A stretch of 64,000 bases of DNA from Bacteroidales bacterium (GCA_017439185.1 JAFRTM010000006.1:7979-71978), one strand, 5' to 3'; positions 45,856-52,423 are shown, numbered from the stretch's first letter. Notes: generated by a model from the sequence alone, not told the origin. Program-made: numbers and translations.

Positions 45856-45863
45856 TATTTTTG
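45856..45863 (+). promoter_or_regulatory. -7 promoter box (TATTTTTG) driving the island leader RNA
   Basis: Matches TAnnTTTG and lies about 300 nt upstream of the first island gene. Confidence 0.5.
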
Positions 45864-45869
45864 CAAAAT

Positions 45870-46110
45870 CTTTCAATAGACAGAAAGAGCAAGAGAAAGT
45901 GCGTTTCTCTATTCCGCAGACGTGAACTTGGACACTTCACGAAGGCATTAAGTCGGAATAAGGATGATGCCAACTTGGTGTGTATTTGTACCTAGCGACA
46001 TACAGCCAAGTGGAGTCATATCAAGAACCTTATCTACTTAATGCCACTTAAAGGGAGTCCAAGCCCTACGTCTGAGATGGGGAACGGGATGGCTCCACTT
46101 TCTTTTTGTA
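45870..46110 (+). ncRNA. Candidate structured leader or small RNA (~240 nt), unknown class
   Basis: No ORF is present. Two small hairpins: AGAGAAA/TTTCTCT (45892-45910) and CGTGAA/TTCACG (45921-45941). A long composite hairpin is closed by a perfect 10-bp helix, GGCATTAAGT (45944-45953) with ACTTAATGCC (46036-46045), with about four further helical segments inside. A terminator-like hairpin (46050-46101) is followed by CTTTTTGT. Confidence 0.5.
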
Positions 46111-46164
46111 TTGTGAAAAATCCGTCGAGCCAGCGGCAAAAAACAACTAAAACAAACAAGTACA

Positions 46165-46818
46165 ATGAGAACAAAACTTTTCAAACAAATCACGCTGGCG
46201 GCTATTATGATAGCCTTTGCATCAACCACGTTCGCCGAAGAGCCTGTAGGCAAAAATGCACTGCAACTCGGTACCTCAATTGAAGAATCCTCCGAGGCCA
46301 CCTTACCATCCGTGCCTCCAAGATACGGAAAGAGTTACCGTAGCGGGGGAGAGAATTCGCTGAGCATTGTGGCGGGCGTGGATTTCGGATGCTACAAGAC
46401 GTTTCCGTACAACGGAGTGTATGTTGGTGCGCTGTATAACTTCATGCTGAGCGACGCTTTCGGCATTGAACCGGGCTTGGAGCTGAGATGGCTGATGAAC
46501 GACAATTATGGCACGTACCATGAGGTGGGCTGGTTTGTGCCGGTGATGGCGAACTACTCGTTTGAGGTGGGCGACGACTTCTATCTCAGTTTCTTTGCCG
46601 GTCCGACATTGGACCTCACAATGGTGAGTGTGGTAGAGTTTTGGGGGACGAAGAACAGCACATGGTTCGGTGACGGATGCTGCGACCTGCTGTTGGGAGC
46701 CGGCGTTGGAGCGAAGTACCGCAACTTCGGCCTGCGCGTAGCATACAACTACGGAGTGGTCTCGCACGCAAAGGCACTGTCGGGTCATTTTAACATCGGG
46801 CTTACCTATAGTTTCTAA
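46165..46818 (+). CDS. Outer-membrane beta-barrel protein (OMP_b-brl/porin-like)
   Basis: 217 aa with a signal peptide, alternating beta-strand pattern, and C-terminal GLTYSF. Confidence 0.75.
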   Translation: MRTKLFKQITLAAIMIAFASTTFAEEPVGKNALQLGTSIEESSEATLPSVPPRYGKSYRSGGENSLSIVAGVDFGCYKTFPYNGVYVGALYNFMLSDAFGIEPGLELRWLMNDNYGTYHEVGWFVPVMANYSFEVGDDFYLSFFAGPTLDLTMVSVVEFWGTKNSTWFGDGCCDLLLGAGVGAKYRNFGLRVAYNYGVVSHAKALSGHFNIGLTYSF

Positions 46819-46836
46819 AATACAAGAATTATAAAC

Positions 46837-46877
46837 AATCAGAAGTTGCGCACGACACGAAATTAGTGCTTATTTTC
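46837..46877 (+). promoter_or_regulatory. Conserved intercistronic motif, copy A (core 46844-46871)
   Basis: AATCAGAAGTTGCGCACGACACGAAATTAGTGCTTATTTTC followed by ATG. The core has 2 mismatches to copies B and C. Confidence 0.85.
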
Positions 46878-47279
46878 ATGAAAAAGACTATGAAATTTAT
46901 GGCAATGCTGATTTGTGCAGCCGCAATGACGGTGTTCACATCTTGTACCGTTGAACCTGAAGAAGGAATCGTTGGACGGTGGGAGTGTACTCATCTTGAT
47001 TTTGGAGATGGGGAAACTTTCATGCAAGCCCTCATCGGAGAGAATAGTGAGTCGCTATATCAGGACGGTATGATTTGGGAATTCTTTGCCGATGGTACAC
47101 ACGTAATCACACGACCTGATGGGAGTCAGGACACTACAAGATATAGAGTATCAGGAAACCAAATTTATATGGACAATATGGATGGGCTTCCATGGGAAAT
47201 AGAAAAGATAACTAACCGTAAATTGCGATTAACCTATACGTATCTGTTTAAGACGACCATGGATTTTAAACGGATATAA
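46878..47279 (+). CDS. Lipocalin-like (Lipocalin_4-type) small lipoprotein
   Basis: ATG 46878 (MKKTMKFMAMLICAAAMTVFTSC lipobox) is preferred over the track's GTG at 46866. Contains GRWECTH...WEFFADGT...YRVSGNQIYM...ITNRKLRLTY. Confidence 0.7.
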   Translation: MKKTMKFMAMLICAAAMTVFTSCTVEPEEGIVGRWECTHLDFGDGETFMQALIGENSESLYQDGMIWEFFADGTHVITRPDGSQDTTRYRVSGNQIYMDNMDGLPWEIEKITNRKLRLTYTYLFKTTMDFKRI

Positions 47280-47285
47280 CCTGAT

Positions 47286-47325
47286 AATCAAAAGTTGCGC
47301 ACGACACGGATTTAGTGCTTTTATT
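47286..47325 (+). promoter_or_regulatory. Conserved intercistronic motif, copy B (core 47293-47320)
   Basis: AATCAAAAGTTGCGCACGACACGGATTTAGTGCTTTTATT followed by ATG. Confidence 0.85.
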
Positions 47326-48273
47326 ATGAAAAAGTCTATAAAAATGATAGGCGTGCTACTATCTCTGGTTATGGTGGCAATGCTCTGCTCGTGCGAGCCT
47401 GAGGTTGACGGTCCTGATAGTCCGACGAATCCAACAAATCCGACAGATCCAACAAATCCTGATACTGTCGTATTTGATGAGAACGGGGCTTCGAATGCCG
47501 TTTTTTCTGTGGCGGAAGGACGTACCGTCCATTTCTCCAGAGGAAACCTGCAGTATCAGGCTTCGACCGACACATGGCGTTTTGCTGAACACCAGTATGA
47601 CTGCATCGGTGATGACAATGCCAACATTTCATCAACCTACAGCGGTTGGATCGACCTCTTCGGATGGGGTACGTCGGGTTGGAACTCCGGAACCACCGCT
47701 TATCAGCCGTGGTCAACAAGCATGACATCCAGCGACTATTGCCCTGGCGGCAGTTACAGCAACAACCTTATGGGCAGTTGCGCCAATGCCGACTGGGGTG
47801 TGTATAACCGCATCAGCAACGGTGGCAACCAGGCCGGCATGTGGAGAACGCTGACAAAGGACGAATGGAATTATCTGCTGGAAGAAAGGAATGCCTCGAC
47901 GGTAAGTGGCACAGAAAACGCCCGTTTCGTAAAGGCTACAATAGGCAGCGTCACTGGTCTGATAGTGTTTCCAGACAGATTCACGTTGCCGACAGGCATA
48001 TCTGTGATGGCCAGCTGCATCAACAGCGCAAGTGCCGCATTTGCAGGCATTACCTACACCACAGAGCAGTGGTCGCAGCTTGAGGGCAACGGCGCGCTCT
48101 TCTTGCCTGCTGCAGGCTACCGCTGCGGCTCGGGAGTGTACAGCGTTGGCTCGCACGGCATCTATTGGTCTAGTACATACAGTGGAGAGAACTTCGCGTG
48201 GTGCCTGTCCTTCGTGCACTCGAGTAGCGATTACCGAAGCCGCGGGCTCTCTGTCCGCTTGGTTCGGGATTAA
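47326..48273 (+). CDS. Lipoprotein with one FISUMP/DUF1566-like (C-type-lectin-fold-like) domain
   Basis: 315 aa with lipobox AMLCSC and a PTNPTNPTDPTNP linker. Contains FSRGNLQYQASTDTWRFAEHQYD...IDLFGWGTSGWN...WRTLTKDEWNYL...LFLPAAGYR...YWSST...GLSVRLVRD. Confidence 0.75.
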   Translation: MKKSIKMIGVLLSLVMVAMLCSCEPEVDGPDSPTNPTNPTDPTNPDTVVFDENGASNAVFSVAEGRTVHFSRGNLQYQASTDTWRFAEHQYDCIGDDNANISSTYSGWIDLFGWGTSGWNSGTTAYQPWSTSMTSSDYCPGGSYSNNLMGSCANADWGVYNRISNGGNQAGMWRTLTKDEWNYLLEERNASTVSGTENARFVKATIGSVTGLIVFPDRFTLPTGISVMASCINSASAAFAGITYTTEQWSQLEGNGALFLPAAGYRCGSGVYSVGSHGIYWSSTYSGENFAWCLSFVHSSSDYRSRGLSVRLVRD

Positions 48274-48306
48274 TTCAATTAATAGATTAAAATAATGAAG
48301 TAACCT

Positions 48307-48705
48307 ATGGAATGTACAGAAATAATATCTACCATTATCGCGGCGGTGGCTTTGGTAGTTTCCATTGTGAGTCTTGTCTGCTCAAAACAGGCAGCGAAGA
48401 AAAGTCTGCAAATGAACATCTTCAATGAGTTTACCCGTCGCTATCAGGAGATAACTATGGGGCTTATGAGTGACCATCAAAATGAGGTAAAATACCAGCG
48501 GTTGTATATTGACCTATGCAGCGAGGAGTATTATCTGAACAAGAAAGACTGTTTGCCCAAGGAGGTGTGGAAAATGTGGCTTGAGGGGATGATTATTGCC
48601 GTGAAAGTGGATTCACTGAAAACTGCTTGGACACAATATCGAGGTTTATACGATCCTGGGTTTCAGGGTTTCTTCGACAATTTGATAAAGGAAAGCAATA
48701 AATAA
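48307..48705 (+). CDS. Small hypothetical protein with an N-terminal TM helix
   Basis: 132 aa with the TM helix IISTIIAAVALVVSIVSLV followed by a helical soluble part. No family recognised and no conserved motif upstream. Confidence 0.55.
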   Translation: MECTEIISTIIAAVALVVSIVSLVCSKQAAKKSLQMNIFNEFTRRYQEITMGLMSDHQNEVKYQRLYIDLCSEEYYLNKKDCLPKEVWKMWLEGMIIAVKVDSLKTAWTQYRGLYDPGFQGFFDNLIKESNK

Positions 48706-48706
48706 G

Positions 48707-48747
48707 AACTCAGAAGTTGCGCACGACACGGATTTAGTGCTTCTATC
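48707..48747 (+). promoter_or_regulatory. Conserved intercistronic motif, copy C (core 48715-48742)
   Basis: AACTCAGAAGTTGCGCACGACACGGATTTAGTGCTTCTATC followed by ATG. The core is identical to copy B. Confidence 0.85.
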
Positions 48748-50526
48748 ATGAAAAAGGTATATTTGATTTTGGCAGCATTTGCTCTGCTGACCTTAGGGAT
48801 GGTGTCGTGCGACCGCAACGATGACACCACGGATAACCAAACAGGTCCAAGTGTTGGTGGATTTGACCAGAACGGTGCTTCAAATGCATTATTCTCAGTT
48901 GCGCCCGGGCGTACAGTGCGTTTCTCAAAGGGGAACCTACAGTATCAGGCTTCTACCGGCACCTGGCGTTTCGCGGAGCATCAGTATGACATTATCGGTG
49001 AGGACAACGAGAACATATCATCGACATACACTGGATGGATAGATCTTTTCGGATTTGGCACTAGTGGATGGAACAGCGGTGTCAACTGTTATCAGCCGTG
49101 GTCGTCCAGTGAAATATCTAATGATTATTCGTTGGAAGGACGTTTTGCTAGCATGCAGGGCGACTATGCAAGAAGCGATTGGGGCATATACAACGCTATT
49201 AGTAACGGAGGTAATCAGGCTGGTCTGTGGAGGACATTAACATGTGACGAATGGGAGTATCTTTTCCATAGGCGACCCAATGCAAAATCCAAATGTGGAC
49301 TGGCGAAAGTCGCTGGTAAAAAGGGATTTGTTATATTGCCTGACTCATGGTCTATACCCTCTGGCTTGACATTTAACAGTGGAGATGCCTATGACGAGCA
49401 ATTTAGCGCCAATACCTATACCTGTTCAGAGTGGGCACAGATGGAATCTGCTGGAGCGATCTTTTTGCCAGATGCGGGCCAACGTTATGGGAGAATCTAT
49501 GAGGATAATTATAACAATGTCTGTTATTGGACGAGCACGTGCACTGGTACGGGATATAACGATAATTTTTCAACAAGTTTCGCCTTGGTCCACACACGTA
49601 GTTATACGTGTTTTGACTTCAGTGAAGAGGATCCTTCTAATGGACTTTCTGTTCGTCTGGTTCAAGTGGCATCATCGTCAGCGGTTGGAGGGTTCGACCA
49701 AAACGGAGCCTCGAAAGCCGTTTTCTCTGTTGATGTAAATAAAACTGTACGCTTTTCGAAAGGCAACCTTCAGTATAATACTACCGGTAGCCATACTGTG
49801 GCAAACGGTGGTACGGCGACAGGCACTTGGCGGTTCGCCGAAAACCAGTATGATATCATAGGCAGCGATAATGAGAACATCTGTCCCACATACACAGGAT
49901 GGATAGATCTTTTTGGATCAGGCACTAGTGGGTGGAATAGCGGTGCTCAATGTTATCAGCCATGGTCGTCCAGCTCTAATGATGACGATTATCTTTCAGT
50001 TCATATAGATCAAAACGCATATGTTGACTGGGGTATATACAATGCCATCAGCAACGGAGGGAATCAAGCCGGTCTGTGGCGGGTGTTAACAGACGATGAG
50101 GCAGATTACCTTTTAAGGAGTAGGTTTAATTGTGAATATAAATTTGGAGGAGCAATTGTTAATGGACAAGCTGGAATTGTAGTTCTTCCCGATGATTGGA
50201 CCCATCCTTCGGGAATCGCTACTGGTTTTATTCCTGCCAGGTCGCTTATTGACGATTGTGTGAACATTTATAATAGTTCGGAGTGGTCGATAATGGAATC
50301 CGCGGGAGCCATATTTTTGCCTTACCCTGGATATCGGTATCGTGGTTTATATTATTACAATGGAACGATAGGTTGGTATTATCTTAAGGGGACGAAATGG
50401 TATAATCCCGGTGCGGTGTTGCAACTTTACCCAGAATACTTCTCATCTCAATATTCCCCACTGGGGGGGCCTGGTAGTGGTAATCATACTGGTTTAGCAG
50501 TCCGTTTAGTTAAAGATACAGAATAA
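48748..50526 (+). CDS. Lipoprotein with two tandem FISUMP/DUF1566-like domains (paralog of 47326..48273)
   Basis: 592 aa with lipobox LGMVSC. The domains span about 48850-49660 and 49690-50520. Each starts NGAS.A.FSV...V.FSKGNLQY and ends GL.VRLV. Confidence 0.75.
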   Translation: MKKVYLILAAFALLTLGMVSCDRNDDTTDNQTGPSVGGFDQNGASNALFSVAPGRTVRFSKGNLQYQASTGTWRFAEHQYDIIGEDNENISSTYTGWIDLFGFGTSGWNSGVNCYQPWSSSEISNDYSLEGRFASMQGDYARSDWGIYNAISNGGNQAGLWRTLTCDEWEYLFHRRPNAKSKCGLAKVAGKKGFVILPDSWSIPSGLTFNSGDAYDEQFSANTYTCSEWAQMESAGAIFLPDAGQRYGRIYEDNYNNVCYWTSTCTGTGYNDNFSTSFALVHTRSYTCFDFSEEDPSNGLSVRLVQVASSSAVGGFDQNGASKAVFSVDVNKTVRFSKGNLQYNTTGSHTVANGGTATGTWRFAENQYDIIGSDNENICPTYTGWIDLFGSGTSGWNSGAQCYQPWSSSSNDDDYLSVHIDQNAYVDWGIYNAISNGGNQAGLWRVLTDDEADYLLRSRFNCEYKFGGAIVNGQAGIVVLPDDWTHPSGIATGFIPARSLIDDCVNIYNSSEWSIMESAGAIFLPYPGYRYRGLYYYNGTIGWYYLKGTKWYNPGAVLQLYPEYFSSQYSPLGGPGSGNHTGLAVRLVKDTE

Positions 50527-50586
50527 AATAGATTTGAAAATGTCCAATCATTGAATAAATAATTGTTTAACCTAAAATTTTAAGAA

Positions 50587-50748
50587 ATGAGACAGTCTAT
50601 CAAACAAGCATCGTTGATGCATCATTATGCGGAAGAATCCGTTTATGACAAACAAAATGTTGAACCGACAAAACCAGAAAAGCCCCTAATTGATGAACGA
50701 CCGAAAAAGCCAAAAGAAGGTCAGAAAATTCTGAATGACGGTAAATAA
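50587..50748 (+). CDS. Possible 53-codon ORF (Lys/Pro/Glu-rich)
   Basis: ATG 50587 to TAA 50746-50748, read by hand: MRQSIKQASLMHHYAEESVYDKQNVEPTKPEKPLIDERPKKPKEGQKILNDGK. Below the track threshold. There is no support beyond the open frame. Confidence 0.2.
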   Translation: MRQSIKQASLMHHYAEESVYDKQNVEPTKPEKPLIDERPKKPKEGQKILNDGK

Positions 50749-50762
50749 CAAAAAACATTTAT

Positions 50763-50804
50763 GCATAAAAGGTTGCGCCCGACACGGATTTAGGGTTTTG
50801 AAAT
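50763..50804 (+). promoter_or_regulatory. Conserved intercistronic motif, copy D (core 50771-50798)
   Basis: GCATAAAAGGTTGCGCCCGACACGGATTTAGGGTTTTGAAAT followed by ATG. The core has 4 mismatches to copies B and C. Confidence 0.75.
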
Positions 50805-50969
50805 ATGGTCAAAATACAAATCAAGGCAGACAGATTGATAGAGCTGATCAACCAACTGTGCAAAACAGAATATGACGCATCGGCCGGTACCGGAAAGTAT
50901 TTGGTGGTTTCCGACAACGGCGATGTGGAGATAAAAGATCAACCAGAAAAAAGAGTACTTACCGACTAA
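50805..50969 (+). CDS. Possible 54-codon ORF placed behind motif copy D
   Basis: Read by hand: MVKIQIKADRLIELINQLCKTEYDASAGTGKYLVVSDNGDVEIKDQPEKRVLTD. Below the track threshold. Its ATG sits 6 nt after the motif, the same spacing as at the three larger genes. Confidence 0.4.
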   Translation: MVKIQIKADRLIELINQLCKTEYDASAGTGKYLVVSDNGDVEIKDQPEKRVLTD

Positions 50970-50977
50970 AAAACATT

Positions 50978-51169
50978 ATGAAAAAAATGTATTGTTCAGT
51001 TGCCGAATATGTTGACGTGGCAACAACGGGATGCGTCAAGACAGTGGATGAATATGTGGACAACTTGTTCATTGACGAGAATGTCATAGTGCATTGCAAG
51101 GACAACGACATGGACTACAAGAAGCAGGAAGTGGGGGAACTTGTGGCATTCATCGAATCGAGGCTTTAA
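50978..51169 (+). CDS. Possible small acidic hypothetical protein (63 aa)
   Basis: Track ORF MKKMYCSVAEYVDVATTGC... lies 8 nt after the previous mini-ORF. No homology recognised. Confidence 0.3.
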   Translation: MKKMYCSVAEYVDVATTGCVKTVDEYVDNLFIDENVIVHCKDNDMDYKKQEVGELVAFIESRL

Positions 51170-51430
51170 TATCATCCAATCAACGATAAAATAATAATAA
51201 TGTTTAACTAAAAAATTCAGAACAATGGAGAACAAATTAAACACATGATTAAATCTCTCGTAGGGTTGAATAGCTAATGAAAGGCCCCGGAGAAAGCAAA
51301 TGAAATTAGGAACAAAGCAAAGACTAAGGAAATCGAGGATAAAATTCTAAATAAAGAATTTCTGTCAACAATGACTATCATCGAAAACATCCTAAATAAA
51401 GAGGATTAGGAATGGAAGTCATTTAAATAG

Positions 51431-51460
51431 CAGGCAGTCAAGTGACTGCCTGTTTTCGTT
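51431..51460 (+). terminator. Intrinsic terminator closing the island transcription unit
   Basis: Perfect 10-bp inverted repeat CAGGCAGTCA / TGACTGCCTG (51431-51440 and 51443-51452), followed by TTTTCGTT. Confidence 0.7.
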
Positions 51461-52423
51461 ATATATTAAATCATTCTCCGCCGTGTCGGATTTGTAATTT
51501 GGCATTTTTGCGGTTGCAGATTATTCGGAATTTTCAGATTTTGCAGATATTACTGGGGGATGGTGTTGGATTACAGGAAGTCTTAAGTCTGAATCCTGAT
51601 GACCTCCGAGAGTTTTTCGACTATTATTTCGACCGTTTCGAGAAGCAAACGATATTAGCACCTGACGGGGAAATTGCAAATACACAAAAAGTATTCTATA
51701 TAGCAGAATAAAAATGAAGATATTTATTCTATAGCTCATAATAATTTATGCTTAGATGCATCCCATAAATGTATTTTATGCAGCCCAAAAATGAGGTAAT
51801 TTTTAATAAAAGAAAGACAAAAAATGATGCCAAATCTGATAAAACACAGAGCAAAGCGGCAAAAAGTTTCTTTCTAAAGAAAAAAAATAGCGCAAAAAGT
51901 TTCTTTGAAAAGAAAGTTTTACCCTTGTTCATTGTGTCCTAAGAAATATTTTGCCCTTCGGAAATGTTAAAAATGGGGAAAGTGTGTCCGAAAACTGCCC
52001 TTAATAGGTTCTATTAGCAAAACATCAGGAGTCTGGTGAAATCCAACCTTTAGCGACAAGCAATAAAAGATATAAAGTTTTGGCATAAAAGGTTATCTGA
52101 TTGAAAAAAGTGCAAATATTTGCAGAAATTTTCAATAGAAATTCTGACGATTGAGAATTAGCATGTAACAATCATTCCAACGGAAGGAAAACCTTTATTA
52201 GATATTAGAATGGAGGACAAGAGACGCGGTGTTTTATGCGACTTGTGGAATAGAAAATTATATTTTTCACATTTTGCGATATACATTTTGTATAAAATTC
52301 ATAACTCTCCTATTCCAAATCAGAATTCCTACTATGGCACCATCCCATATAGAAATATGGGACTAAAAATCTGGTGACAGAAAAAAGTGTGGTTATTTTT
52401 GTTGTTATTTTCAATTTTATATG

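Follow-up and report, generated by a model that had tools for sequence, protein, structure and literature searches.

Organization of the operon

The window (the whole 64-kb stretch of DNA that was analyzed) contains an array of eight co-oriented genes, and all features described here lie on the + strand. The operon starts with a canonical Bacteroidetes −7 promoter box (TATTTTTG, 45856–45863), arranged as in other leader modules, and continues with a structured leader RNA (45870–46110; fold z-score −5.9, with an inverted repeat), at the end of which a long-range helix (46008–46019/46089–46100) is followed by a U tract. This leader was 84–88% conserved in two other loci, L030 and L047, and had no match in Rfam. 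The first gene (46165–46818) showed a weak match to an outer-membrane beta-barrel family; its upstream region is of the ordinary A-rich kind, and it lacks the motif described below. An intrinsic-terminator-like hairpin was found at the operon end (51429–51454). Values of 0.32–0.49 and of 0.37–0.55 were obtained for the G+C content of the array vs. 0.52–0.61 for the flanks; the array is a lower-G+C island of short co-oriented genes.

Four copies of a 28-nt motif stand in the spacers of this operon, at the positions given in the original prediction. Copies 2 (47293–47320; core G1 at 47294, hairpin arms 47300–47302 and 47315–47317) and 3 (48715–48742; core G1 at 48716) are identical, both being A-type (GCGCAC...GUG) with 10 nt from TTAG to ATG. 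Copy 1 (46844–46871; core G1 at 46845, hairpin arms 46851–46853 and 46866–46868) has 2 mismatches in relation to copy 2 and is also A-type. Copy 4 (50771–50798; core G1 at 50772) has 4 mismatches and is C-type (GCGCCC...GGG), the commoner type across the family. The TTAG-to-ATG distance is 11 nt in copies 1 and 4. In 100 dinucleotide-preserving shuffles, the mean number of matches was 0.00 for the 28-mer with ≤3 mismatches and 0.01 for a relaxed core; no fifth copy was found in the 64 kb when core variants and indels were included.

The motif ends 5–6 nt before the respective ATGs (46878, 47326, 48748, and 50805) and, as had been claimed, fills the spacers, with gaps of 25, 13, 9, and 22 nt between the preceding stop codons and the motif. 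The flanks outside the motif did not align, in agreement with the view that the motif is independent of gene duplication. The downstream genes, thought to be non-homologous, are indeed unrelated, to each other and to the rest, for copies 1 and 4, but those of copies 2 and 3 are paralogues with 47% amino acid identity.

Cassette 1 (46878–47279) encodes a lipocalin-like lipoprotein, a label upheld by a match to Pfam Lipocalin_4 (E 4e-5); the part coding for its signal peptide is shared by FISUMP-like genes that occupy this position in L047 and L030 and are unrelated to it. Cassette 2 (47326–48705) consists of genes for a 315-aa lipoprotein (47326–48273) and a 132-aa membrane protein (48307–48705), and cassette 3 (48748–50748) of a gene for a 592-aa lipoprotein (48748–50526), a tandem paralogue of the 315-aa protein, and a 53-aa ORF (50587–50748). 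Neither Pfam nor NCBIfam supported the FISUMP/DUF1566 label previously given to proteins of the window, for which there was only a weak BLAST link to the FISUMP-like proteins of L030. Cassette 4 (50805–51169) contains a 54-aa ORF (50805–50969) and a 63-aa ORF (50978–51169). The motif had been taken as the reason to trust the 54-codon ORF, which appears reasonable, as the spacing of 11 nt is that of the family; short ORFs are also usual behind the motif (37 of 139 motif-associated ORFs were ≤100 aa). In the two-gene units of the window, only the first gene is preceded by the motif, which therefore behaves as a unit boundary and not as a per-gene start signal. Operon genes without the motif start in an ordinary A-rich context, so the motif is dispensable for translation as such.

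An order-wide element family

The four repeats belong to an element of approximately 30 nt that occurs throughout the order Bacteroidales and had not been catalogued before. A search beyond the window, proposed in the original prediction, showed that the motif is not local: the exact 19-base core was present at 118 or more loci in many Bacteroidales families, and Bacteroidales genomes and metagenomes yielded 161 distinct copies altogether. Most copies are solitary, not arrayed, and all true copies read in the sense direction of the ORF that follows. The consensus is TARAA-GUUGCGC-[C/A]-C-GACACG-(4–6 nt, ending in A)-G-[G/U]-G-(7–9 nt)-AUG, with CGACACG in the middle as the most invariant part. 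The upstream ‘AA.CA.AA’ noted earlier holds in the lineage of the window, but the bases conserved there family-wide are T-A-R-A-A. The ATG lies 10–11 nt 3′ of the core in about 85% of the copies, and the distance from TTAG to ATG was 10 nt in 82 and 11 nt in 22 of 128 copies.

The genes behind the motif belong to at least 62 mutually unrelated families. Signal-peptide-like N-termini were found in 85% of the motif-associated proteins of ≥100 aa vs. 24% of neighbouring genes. A Pfam search of 139 motif-associated proteins gave matches to LRR_5 (BspA-type LRR), Lcl_C, DUF6591, Por_Secre_tail (T9SS tails), and similar families; the 25 most frequent of the 38 families matched included no Imm/SUKH immunity family.

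The covariance models of Rfam 15 (cmscan, 4227 families; gathering score or E ≤5) did not match any of the four copies, and the related loci gave only unrelated DUF805b and tRNA matches. DUF805/DUF805b (RF02914) resembles the motif in being a short (~35 nt) conserved element just 5′ of diverse small genes in gut/rumen Bacteroidales. In L047, DUF805b immediately precedes a degenerate motif copy, and sequence resembling DUF805b lies 5′ of the motif in six loci; however, the two differ in sequence and structure, and cmscan assigned no motif copy to DUF805b. JUMPstart/ops, whose Rfam model did not match the motif, is likewise a short, orientation-specific conserved element in transcribed leaders of surface-structure operons. 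A single ops stands in each operon, remote from the start codon, and works via the non-template DNA strand and RfaH, whereas the motif recurs in front of internal cistrons and keeps a fixed distance to the AUG.

Hairpin and covariation

The original prediction had stated that GCAC/GUGC is the only self-complementarity of the motif, thereby overlooking a hairpin in which one pair covaries. The hairpin (−32 to −9 relative to the AUG) has a C-N-C/G-N-G stem closed by G·A. GACACG, which is invariant, makes up the 5′ half of its loop, and GUUGCG, likewise invariant and single-stranded, precedes the stem. Pair 8:23 was C:G in 96 copies and A:U in 23, with no broken pair; it was U·G in two copies of L079. 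None of 500 shuffles reached its covariation score. In a sample of copies chosen on the 5′ half of the motif only, the 3′ part of the loop varied in sequence and length, but C8 was always combined with A + GGG and A8 with A + GUG. Base-pair covariation on an alignment not fitted to the structure, as expected of a structured cis-regulatory RNA, was thus observed, though for only one pair, with two main states. A single-stranded DNA hairpin would give an identical 8:23 pattern. The 3–4-bp stem was the sole consistently predicted structure; it is very weak, with a pairing probability of ~0.36. Both A- and C-type hairpins occur in the one operon of the window, so a single putative factor would have to accept both.

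Transcriptional context

In accordance with the original prediction, the motif is neither a TAnnTTTG promoter nor a terminator nor an attC-like palindrome. The Bacteroidetes sigma-A promoter (TAnnTTTG at −7, TTTG at −33) is absent from it, and canonical boxes were found upstream instead: TAnnTTTG was present 12–70 nt upstream of 22 copies and 200–392 nt upstream of 43 copies. Another position was 2–60 nt 3′ of a co-oriented stop codon (40 copies). These upstream promoters and stop codons suggest that the motif is transcribed from promoters 5′ of it. Many copies stand at the end of leader RNAs of ~250–390 nt containing a terminator, and these leaders constitute a new RNA family.

Start regions in Bacteroidetes are normally A-rich, unstructured, and without Shine-Dalgarno pairing (PMC7797042, PMC3155529), and a G+C-rich element at this place thus points to regulation. 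The motif was rejected as a Shine-Dalgarno element (CCUCC anti-SD, −13 to −6), as UAGGGAU pairs at best by 3 bp and the A-type UAGUGY not at all.

Comparison with cassette arrays

In rAID-1 arrays and integron attC arrays, as in the window, the spacers between short, highly variable genes of one orientation and lower G+C content carry direct repeats; as at the motif loci, related genomes differ in their units, and the breakpoints fall on the repeat. According to Ross et al. (10.1101/471110), a rAID-1 has a 5′ XerD-like recombinase (≥44% identity to BF9343_RS08045) and at least two co-directional downstream genes with G+C ≤41%, and contains orphan immunity genes of the SUKH/Imm families. In contrast, the array of the window has no XerD-like recombinase and opens with a promoter followed by a leader RNA and the gene for an outer-membrane protein. 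As to co-directional genes of low G+C content, the array has eight co-oriented genes with values below those of the flanks and mostly >41%. As judged from the 25 commonest of the 38 matched Pfam families, the motif loci encode surface/secreted proteins rather than members of recognisable immunity families. Unlike attC and rAID-1 repeats, the motif has a fixed spacing to the ATG and no palindrome or GTTRRRY/RYYYAAC pair. These differences are descriptive, and in sequence the motif may still coincide with the rAID-1 repeat, which is published as an image logo only (Fig. S4A); the motif strings did not occur in the rAID-1 texts and supplements searched.

Known site types were also compared. An integron attC site (R''-L''...L'-R', GTTRRRY core and inverse core) was rejected, there being no inverted arms of ≥5 nt and no GCGCAAC upstream, as was a Xer/dif-type site (11-6-11), for which the left arm agreed with the reverse-complemented right arm in 3 of 11 bases, with no dyad symmetry. 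A phmmer search with XerD of all ORFs revealed no tyrosine recombinase in the 64-kb window, and only two housekeeping XerD genes when 130 loci were added. An integron array or CALIN was rejected, as none of these was an IntI-type tyrosine recombinase.

Function of the element

Among the three roles originally proposed, an intercistronic site for translation control is best supported, the motif being tied to start codons. We tentatively favour, as plausible though short of probable, the reading that the motif is a portable 5′-UTR/intercistronic RNA operator, bound by a conserved trans factor and gating translation. Starting from the observed family, anatomy, fixed spacing, covariation, gene associations, and breakpoints, we infer the RNA level of action, the existence of the factor, and the direction of control. 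The element would be transcribed within 5′ UTRs and intercistronic spacers, fold into a minimal hairpin, and serve as an operator for the factor, a sequence-specific RNA-binding protein being the likeliest candidate, ahead of an sRNA; no RNA complementary to the motif was found when rRNA and leader RNA were compared. The factor might gate translation initiation of the next cistron, and possibly also affect 5′-end stability, which would lead to co-regulation of a large, changeable set of accessory genes, mainly for exported/surface proteins. These genes are often also under an upstream terminator-type leader RNA.

It is quite improbable that the motif is instead an alternative sigma promoter producing leaderless or near-leaderless mRNAs, with GTTGCG as the upstream and TTAGGG as the downstream element and the start at or near the A of the ATG. 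The strict orientation, the fixed ATG spacing, the single copy per unit, and two better-conserved blocks at about −29 and −11 from the ATG agree with a promoter, and one class of non-canonical promoters in B. thetaiotaomicron is built of −30 and −10 elements (PMC7366714). However, the most invariant part, CGACACG, falls where the spacer of a promoter is expected, the ‘downstream element’ changes in both sequence and length without loss of pair 8:23, and the element spacing of ~13–14 nt is too short for the sigma-70 family; moreover, canonical promoters lie 5′ of the motif more often than by chance, copies follow leader terminators or stop codons by 2–25 nt within a tight operon, and 5′ UTRs of <10 nt are rare in Bacteroides (~3.7%; PMC7366714). 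Still less credible is a seven-codon uORF, UUG CGC CCG ACA CGN ANU UAG, with reinitiation at the AUG 10 nt after its stop, even if UUG (positions 2–4) and UAG (20–22) are in frame in all canonical copies, the A-rich TARAA precedes UUG, position 16, a variable one, falls on a synonymous third codon position (CGN), and T19C and T19A are synonymous. Reinitiation is how ORF-11 in attI1 delivers ribosomes to integron cassettes. Yet the third-codon positions 7, 10, and 13 of the motif are invariant while the second/first positions 18, 5, and 6 vary, position 8 covaries with a base past the stop codon, loop-length variants shift the frame, and degenerate copies often lack the stop or have a frame that enters the main ORF. 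Base pairing of the motif with the leader RNA of the operon, or with rRNA, has the smallest likelihood and is already largely refuted: the leader tail AAAUCCGU (46118–46125) offers eight contiguous complementary bases in the window, as the original prediction pointed out, but the orthologous leaders of L030 and L047 have not kept this octamer, the motif-leader duplex energies of 18 loci and the window equalled those of shuffles, and the complementarity to rRNA (E. coli 16S, 23S, and 5S; 5′ half of a Bacteroidales 16S) did not exceed that of shuffles.

The main rival to an RNA operator, although unlikely, is an integron-like or rAID-like cassette junction, the motif being a DNA site for a dedicated recombinase encoded elsewhere. 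Units of the motif and one or two genes would be excised or inserted at the copies, and the fixed ATG distance would secure expression of promoterless cassettes. This idea, also put forward originally, found real support in that the motif is a synteny breakpoint, on both sides (51 copy pairs shared the upstream flank only, 34 the downstream flank only, and 26 both), and in that L075 corresponds to L005 without the 696-bp unit lying precisely between two copies. In addition, one unit (motif, 56-aa gene, and hairpin) recurs in different contexts, the low G+C of the window array and the motif before only the first gene of its units agree with cassettes, and rAID-1 arrays in Bacteroidales are likewise reported to have repetitive intergenic sequences (10.1101/471110, PMC12247911). 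On the other hand, neither dyad symmetry nor inverted arms of ≥5 nt turned up in the motif (scan of −6 to +41), and there is no recombinase near 116 of 118 loci, both XerD-like neighbours being housekeeping XerD in a conserved neighbourhood, which argues against a classical recombination site. Nor does such a site explain the 10–11-nt ATG spacing across 62 families. Most copies are solitary, and the gene content noted above (BspA-type LRR, Lcl_C, and T9SS tails) has no Imm/SUKH among the 25 commonest of 38 Pfam families. The pattern of the same upstream and different downstream flanks is also produced by any paralogous regulatory leader family, and the single-cassette difference could come from RecA recombination between repeats of ~35 bp.

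If the motif is an RNA operator, cassette exchange may be a consequence: with dozens of near-identical copies per genome, recombination between them would add, delete, and swap the genes behind them, making the motif resemble a cassette junction. We regard as doubtful the wider possibility of a dedicated, transferable ‘start module’ in Bacteroidales, combining an RNA operator and a conserved factor that switches translation, an exchangeable cassette unit, and a riboswitch-like leader family. Such a module would switch translation of a fluid pool of exported-protein genes on or off, define the unit of a recombinase-independent (or trans-recombinase) cassette system, and act jointly with the new riboswitch-like leader RNA family.

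As an RNA operator, the motif would resemble the MS2/PP7 coat-protein and ribosomal-protein operators and CsrA sites, which are small hairpins with a sequence-specific loop over the initiation region; pairing is kept in translational operators while base-pair identity is free. It differs from operators of the MS2/PP7/CsrA type in standing before dozens of unrelated genes per genome, order-wide, and in that its partner is putative. CsrA is not known in Bacteroidetes. The ACAnGGAU of the motif resembles the CsrA SELEX core if N16 is G, GGA being present in only ~53% of the copies.

The motif in its operon

The four plus-strand copies on which the original prediction was built were all recovered. 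The copies at 47293 and 48715 are identical, and those at 46844 and 50771 have 2 and 4 mismatches, respectively. Dinucleotide-preserving shuffles gave a chance expectation of none for the 28-mer in the window, and relaxed scans, in which mismatches and loop-length changes were allowed, revealed no fifth copy in the 64 kb; MAFFT alignment misplaces the loop-length variants of the motif. The spacing was also as claimed: in all four cases the motif fills the spacer, beginning 9–25 nt after the preceding stop codon and ending 5–6 nt before the ATG (46878, 47326, 48748, and 50805). We checked the possibility that the spacers are parts of a common duplicated segment, and their flanks did not align beyond the motif. 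The downstream genes had been described as non-homologous; this holds for the genes after copies 1 and 4 (46844 and 50771), which are unrelated to all the others, but not for copies 2 and 3 (47293 and 48715), which precede paralogues with 47% amino acid identity.

The operon consists of a canonical promoter box TATTTTTG (45856–45863), a strongly structured leader RNA of ~240 nt (45870–46110; fold z = -5.9) with a long-range helix at its end (46008–46019/46089–46100) followed by a U tract, eight co-oriented genes, and a closing terminator-like hairpin (51429–51454). The motif is absent before four further genes of the operon (starts 46165, 48307, 50587, and 50978), the upstream regions of which are of the ordinary A-rich kind. 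Baez et al. reportedly described the start regions of Bacteroidetes in 2019 as A-rich and unstructured, with the anti-SD sequestered. No inverted repeats were found around the window promoter, and an invertible promoter was therefore dropped.

The region 45.6–52.4 kb is an island of lower G+C content (0.32–0.49 versus 0.52–0.61 in the flanks), bordered by queC/queD/queE on one side and by a TraB/GumN-like gene and then hutU on the other. The stretch 51.2–52.3 kb is A+T-rich and without a convincing ORF. Right after the operon terminator, CCGCCGTGTCGGATTTGTAA at 51478–51500 resembles the motif core except that TGT stands in place of its complement ACA; on the minus strand, a 9-mer match there is no more than expected by chance. 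We saw no strain-level cassette polymorphism, as every contig with an identical outer-membrane protein carries the same array. The contigs of five independent assemblies (L299–L301, L303, and L304) start at ~46053, exactly 112 nt before the outer-membrane-protein ATG and at the point where homology to L047, a related locus, starts, which suggests that the 5' half of the leader is strain-variable or repeated.

Distribution of the motif family

With one genome per prokaryotic species, exact GTTGCGCNCGACACGNANTTAG was found at a minimum of 118 loci, nearly all in Bacteroidales, and the addition of degenerate and metagenomic copies gave at least 161 distinct sequences. The motif predicted from the window is thus real and belongs to an order-wide family, on a scale far beyond what a single stretch could reveal. 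The carriers among the matches listed included Prevotellaceae, Muribaculaceae, Paludibacteraceae, Marinilabiliaceae, Dysgonomonadaceae, Tannerella, and Ca. Aphodosoma, with one isolate (Porphyromonadaceae bacterium H1); the few matches in other phyla were in-frame coding coincidences. Since PLSDB plasmids and cultured phages gave no match and IMG/VR only 15 contigs, the motif belongs to neither phages nor plasmids. When the window and 14 related loci were scanned with Rfam 15, both at the gathering threshold and by E-value, the motif and the leaders were not assigned to any family, and neither the motif sequence nor its complement or RNA form was found in the searchable literature. A motif-linked 58-aa gene was not found in cultured Bacteroides; its matches were confined to MAGs or short contigs. 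The motif is an order-wide, uncatalogued, start-codon-proximal element with a supported hairpin. Five metagenome contigs (L202, L226, L252, L254, and L257) carry an unrelated tandem element of ~146-nt period that contains GTTGCGCGCGACACGTCGTCTCAATATGGTGATCATTTCTGTGAAA and has a 15-mer in common with the motif by chance.

Conserved bases and the hairpin

All true copies read in the same direction as the ORF downstream of them. The distance from TTAG to the ATG is 10 nt in 82 and 11 nt in 22 of 128 copies, most of the remainder having a second ATG at 10–11 nt. Conservation extends to bases outside the search pattern, namely T-A-R-A-A before the core G1 and G24 (120/121 copies). Position 8 and the base after TTAG (position 23) form C:G in 96 copies and A:U in 23, the pair is never broken, and the observed covariation score was reached by none of 500 column shuffles; two copies in a further locus, L079, have U8 and G23. 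Because both motif halves had been fixed by the search pattern in this sample, the covariation test was repeated on a metagenome scan with the 5' half only, in which ~22 true members were recognized by an A-rich upstream region and a downstream ATG. In these, the 3' part of the loop is variable both in sequence and in length (NAUUUA, NAUUA, AACCCA, AAGCA, AAUGAA, AAUAUA, AAUCA, and others), yet it always ends in A and is followed by GGG, or by GUG in two cases with A8. In the corresponding 3'-half-only scan, 4 of 41 matches contained the motif, all with exact GTTGCGCC. When 155 copies with flanks were folded by partition function, the 8:23 stem was the only recurrent structure (probability ~0.36). 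Based on the conserved bases, the 8:23 covariation, the loop variation, and the folding, the element is UARAA-GUUGCGC-N-C-GACACG-(N4-6, ending in A)-G-N'-G-(N7-9)-AUG, i.e. a hairpin of minimal size with invariant single-stranded parts. Both the A8/GUG and the C8/GGG types occur in the single operon of the window.

Genes downstream of the motif

The downstream ORFs fall into at least 62 unrelated clusters, most without a Pfam family; BspA-type LRR (9), Lcl_C/DUF1566 (6), DUF6591 (6), and T9SS sorting tails (5) recur, and no recognizable immunity family is among their 25 most frequent Pfam families. The ORFs have a median length of 163 aa, with 100 aa or less in 37 of 139. By a single simple hydrophobicity rule, N-termini were signal-like in 87/102 motif-associated proteins of at least 100 aa, as against 127/531 neighbouring ORFs of the same loci. 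A co-oriented stop codon lies within 60 nt upstream, mostly at 2–12 nt, in 40 of 153 copies, and in ~10 cases it is formed by the TAR of TARAA. A TAnnTTTG box was found 12–70 nt upstream in 22 and 200–392 nt upstream in 43 of the 153. The motif is associated with exported accessory proteins, and also with a new leader RNA family and gene-cassette turnover.

Leader RNAs upstream of the motif

Loci of Ca. Aphodosoma and of several further lineages are homologous to each other only over the motif and ~250–390 nt upstream of it, each block having a TAnnTTTG box at its start. These leaders are promoter-proximal and precede unrelated exported-protein genes. Nineteen could be aligned to a common 3' domain (L007, L010, L012, L013, L018, L031, L034, L036, L038, L063, L064, L067, L080, L086, L089, L098, L099, L113, and L117). 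The domain contains GCGUGG/CCACGC, a long-range helix that is invariant and has a U tract after it, as well as an internal helix with compensatory changes at 7 pairs. The leader of the window has the same layout (AGUGGAG/CUCCACU and U tract) and may be a distant member. The family looks like an unclassified terminator-type attenuator or a riboswitch candidate, which would place many motif-bearing genes under two layers of putative RNA control.

Rearrangements at the motif

All pairs of copies were compared over 150 nt on each side. The upstream flank only was shared by 51 pairs, the downstream flank only by 34, and both by 26. The signal of a shared upstream and a different downstream flank comes in part simply from the paralogous leader family. 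Locus L075 is identical to L005 upstream of the L005 copy at 603 and downstream of that at 1299; what L075 lacks is thus precisely the 696-bp unit that two motif copies enclose. A unit of motif, 56-aa gene, and hairpin was found in three different contexts, with homology beginning 4 nt ahead of the motif. Both the unit transfers and the difference by one cassette represent real rearrangements that took place at the motif. At the locus of the window itself, the related genomes L047 and L030 have in common with it the motif with its leader and 45 nt of coding sequence for the signal peptide (window 46878–46921, signal peptide MKKTMKFMAMLLCAA...), beyond which L047 and L030 encode an unrelated FISUMP-like protein and the window a lipocalin-like one. 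Since ~45 nt of coding sequence are common to unrelated genes, the recombination breakpoint lies within the signal peptide.

Possible function

We tentatively favour the reading that the motif is an RNA operator in the initiation region, and infer a mechanism in which a conserved trans-acting factor would read the hairpin near the start codon. This reading rests on the constant distance to the AUG, the strand rule, transcription through operons and from promoters further upstream, the preserved base pair, and the invariance of the unpaired bases; moreover, other cistrons of the same operon do without the element. Since it is G+C-rich at -32 to -9, where the start regions of Bacteroidetes normally are rich in A and lack structure, with a sequestered anti-SD (PMC7797042, PMC3155529), a role as a gate on initiation is likelier than one as a plain enhancer. 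Cassette-like turnover would be a consequence of many identical ~35-bp repeats per genome. A dedicated recombination system with its site at the motif is a serious rival, if on balance an unlikely one. It is favoured by the rAID-1 arrays of Bacteroidales, described with 'repetitive intergenic sequences reminiscent of integrons' (10.1101/471110; PMC12247911); the window departs from the rAID-1 definition in lacking the recombinase and in its gene content, and agrees with the G+C criterion only partly. The supplements of the rAID papers do not contain the motif sequence. Association with XerD-like recombinases was rejected, as the only tyrosine recombinases in the fetched flanks were two XerD genes of the housekeeping type, set in the conserved gene neighbourhood DUF1015-XerD-KdsA, and no neighbour gene recurred near the copies. 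Dyad symmetry reaching 5 nt is absent from the motif, which thus looks unlike attC, dif, core-type, or REP sites.

Explanations based on a promoter, a mini-ORF, or RNA pairing are improbable even when taken together. The motif is without the Bacteroidetes promoter consensus, as originally stated, and in a bipartite promoter its most invariant part would fall on the spacer. The pattern of variation gives no support to an in-frame UUG...UAG mini-ORF. Pairing with rRNA (E. coli 16S, 23S, and 5S, and the 5' half of a Bacteroidales 16S) was no better than with shuffles. The reverse complement of the motif resembles the 3' end of tRNA-Leu(UAG) in fetched loci (-24.5 kcal/mol); tRNA pairing or mimicry was dropped as coincidence, there being no T-arm partner and no link to integration. 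The proposed pairing of the motif with the leader-tail octamer AAAUCCGU (46118–46125) had to be abandoned, since the octamer is not conserved in orthologous leaders, and motif-leader complementarity in general did not exceed that of shuffles. CsrA-like, boxB-like, K-turn, and preQ1-I-like elements were dropped on sequence, their defining bases being variable or absent.

The motif bears on start-codon choice and control without Shine-Dalgarno pairing in Bacteroidetes, and on the turnover and control of the very large surface-lipoprotein repertoires of gut and rumen Bacteroidales. Nearly invariant, set at a fixed spacing to more than 160 start codons, and containing a base pair that can be tested, it gives experiments a concrete handle. 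In annotation, the motif validates small ORFs such as the 54-codon gene of the window, fixes true starts, and flags accessory cassettes. If it were the rAID-1 repeat, the rAID-1 system would reach well past immunity genes and recombinase-linked arrays. The leader RNA is itself a candidate for an unclassified attenuator.

Other elements near the motif

A subgroup of leaders (L007, L012, L013, L031, L089, L098, and L117) has an extra conserved hairpin, CCUUUG-M-GGUGCUG-R-AAAGG, between the leader terminator and the motif, ~10–35 nt upstream of the latter. The Rfam DUF805b RNA (RF02914) matched L047:623–657 (minus strand) and L098:5172–5204 and 5506–5538 (plus strand), one match in L047 lying 12 nt upstream of a degenerate motif copy, and DUF805b-like sequence (CCGAAAAGC...AGAGUAGG) immediately precedes the motif in L019, L020, L044, L050, L107, and L116. 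This suggests that small 5'-UTR elements are combined modularly. In an IMG/VR 'viral' contig, a FopS sRNA (RF04319; L134:5689–5761, minus strand) adjoins two integrase genes and a 16S rRNA gene fragment.
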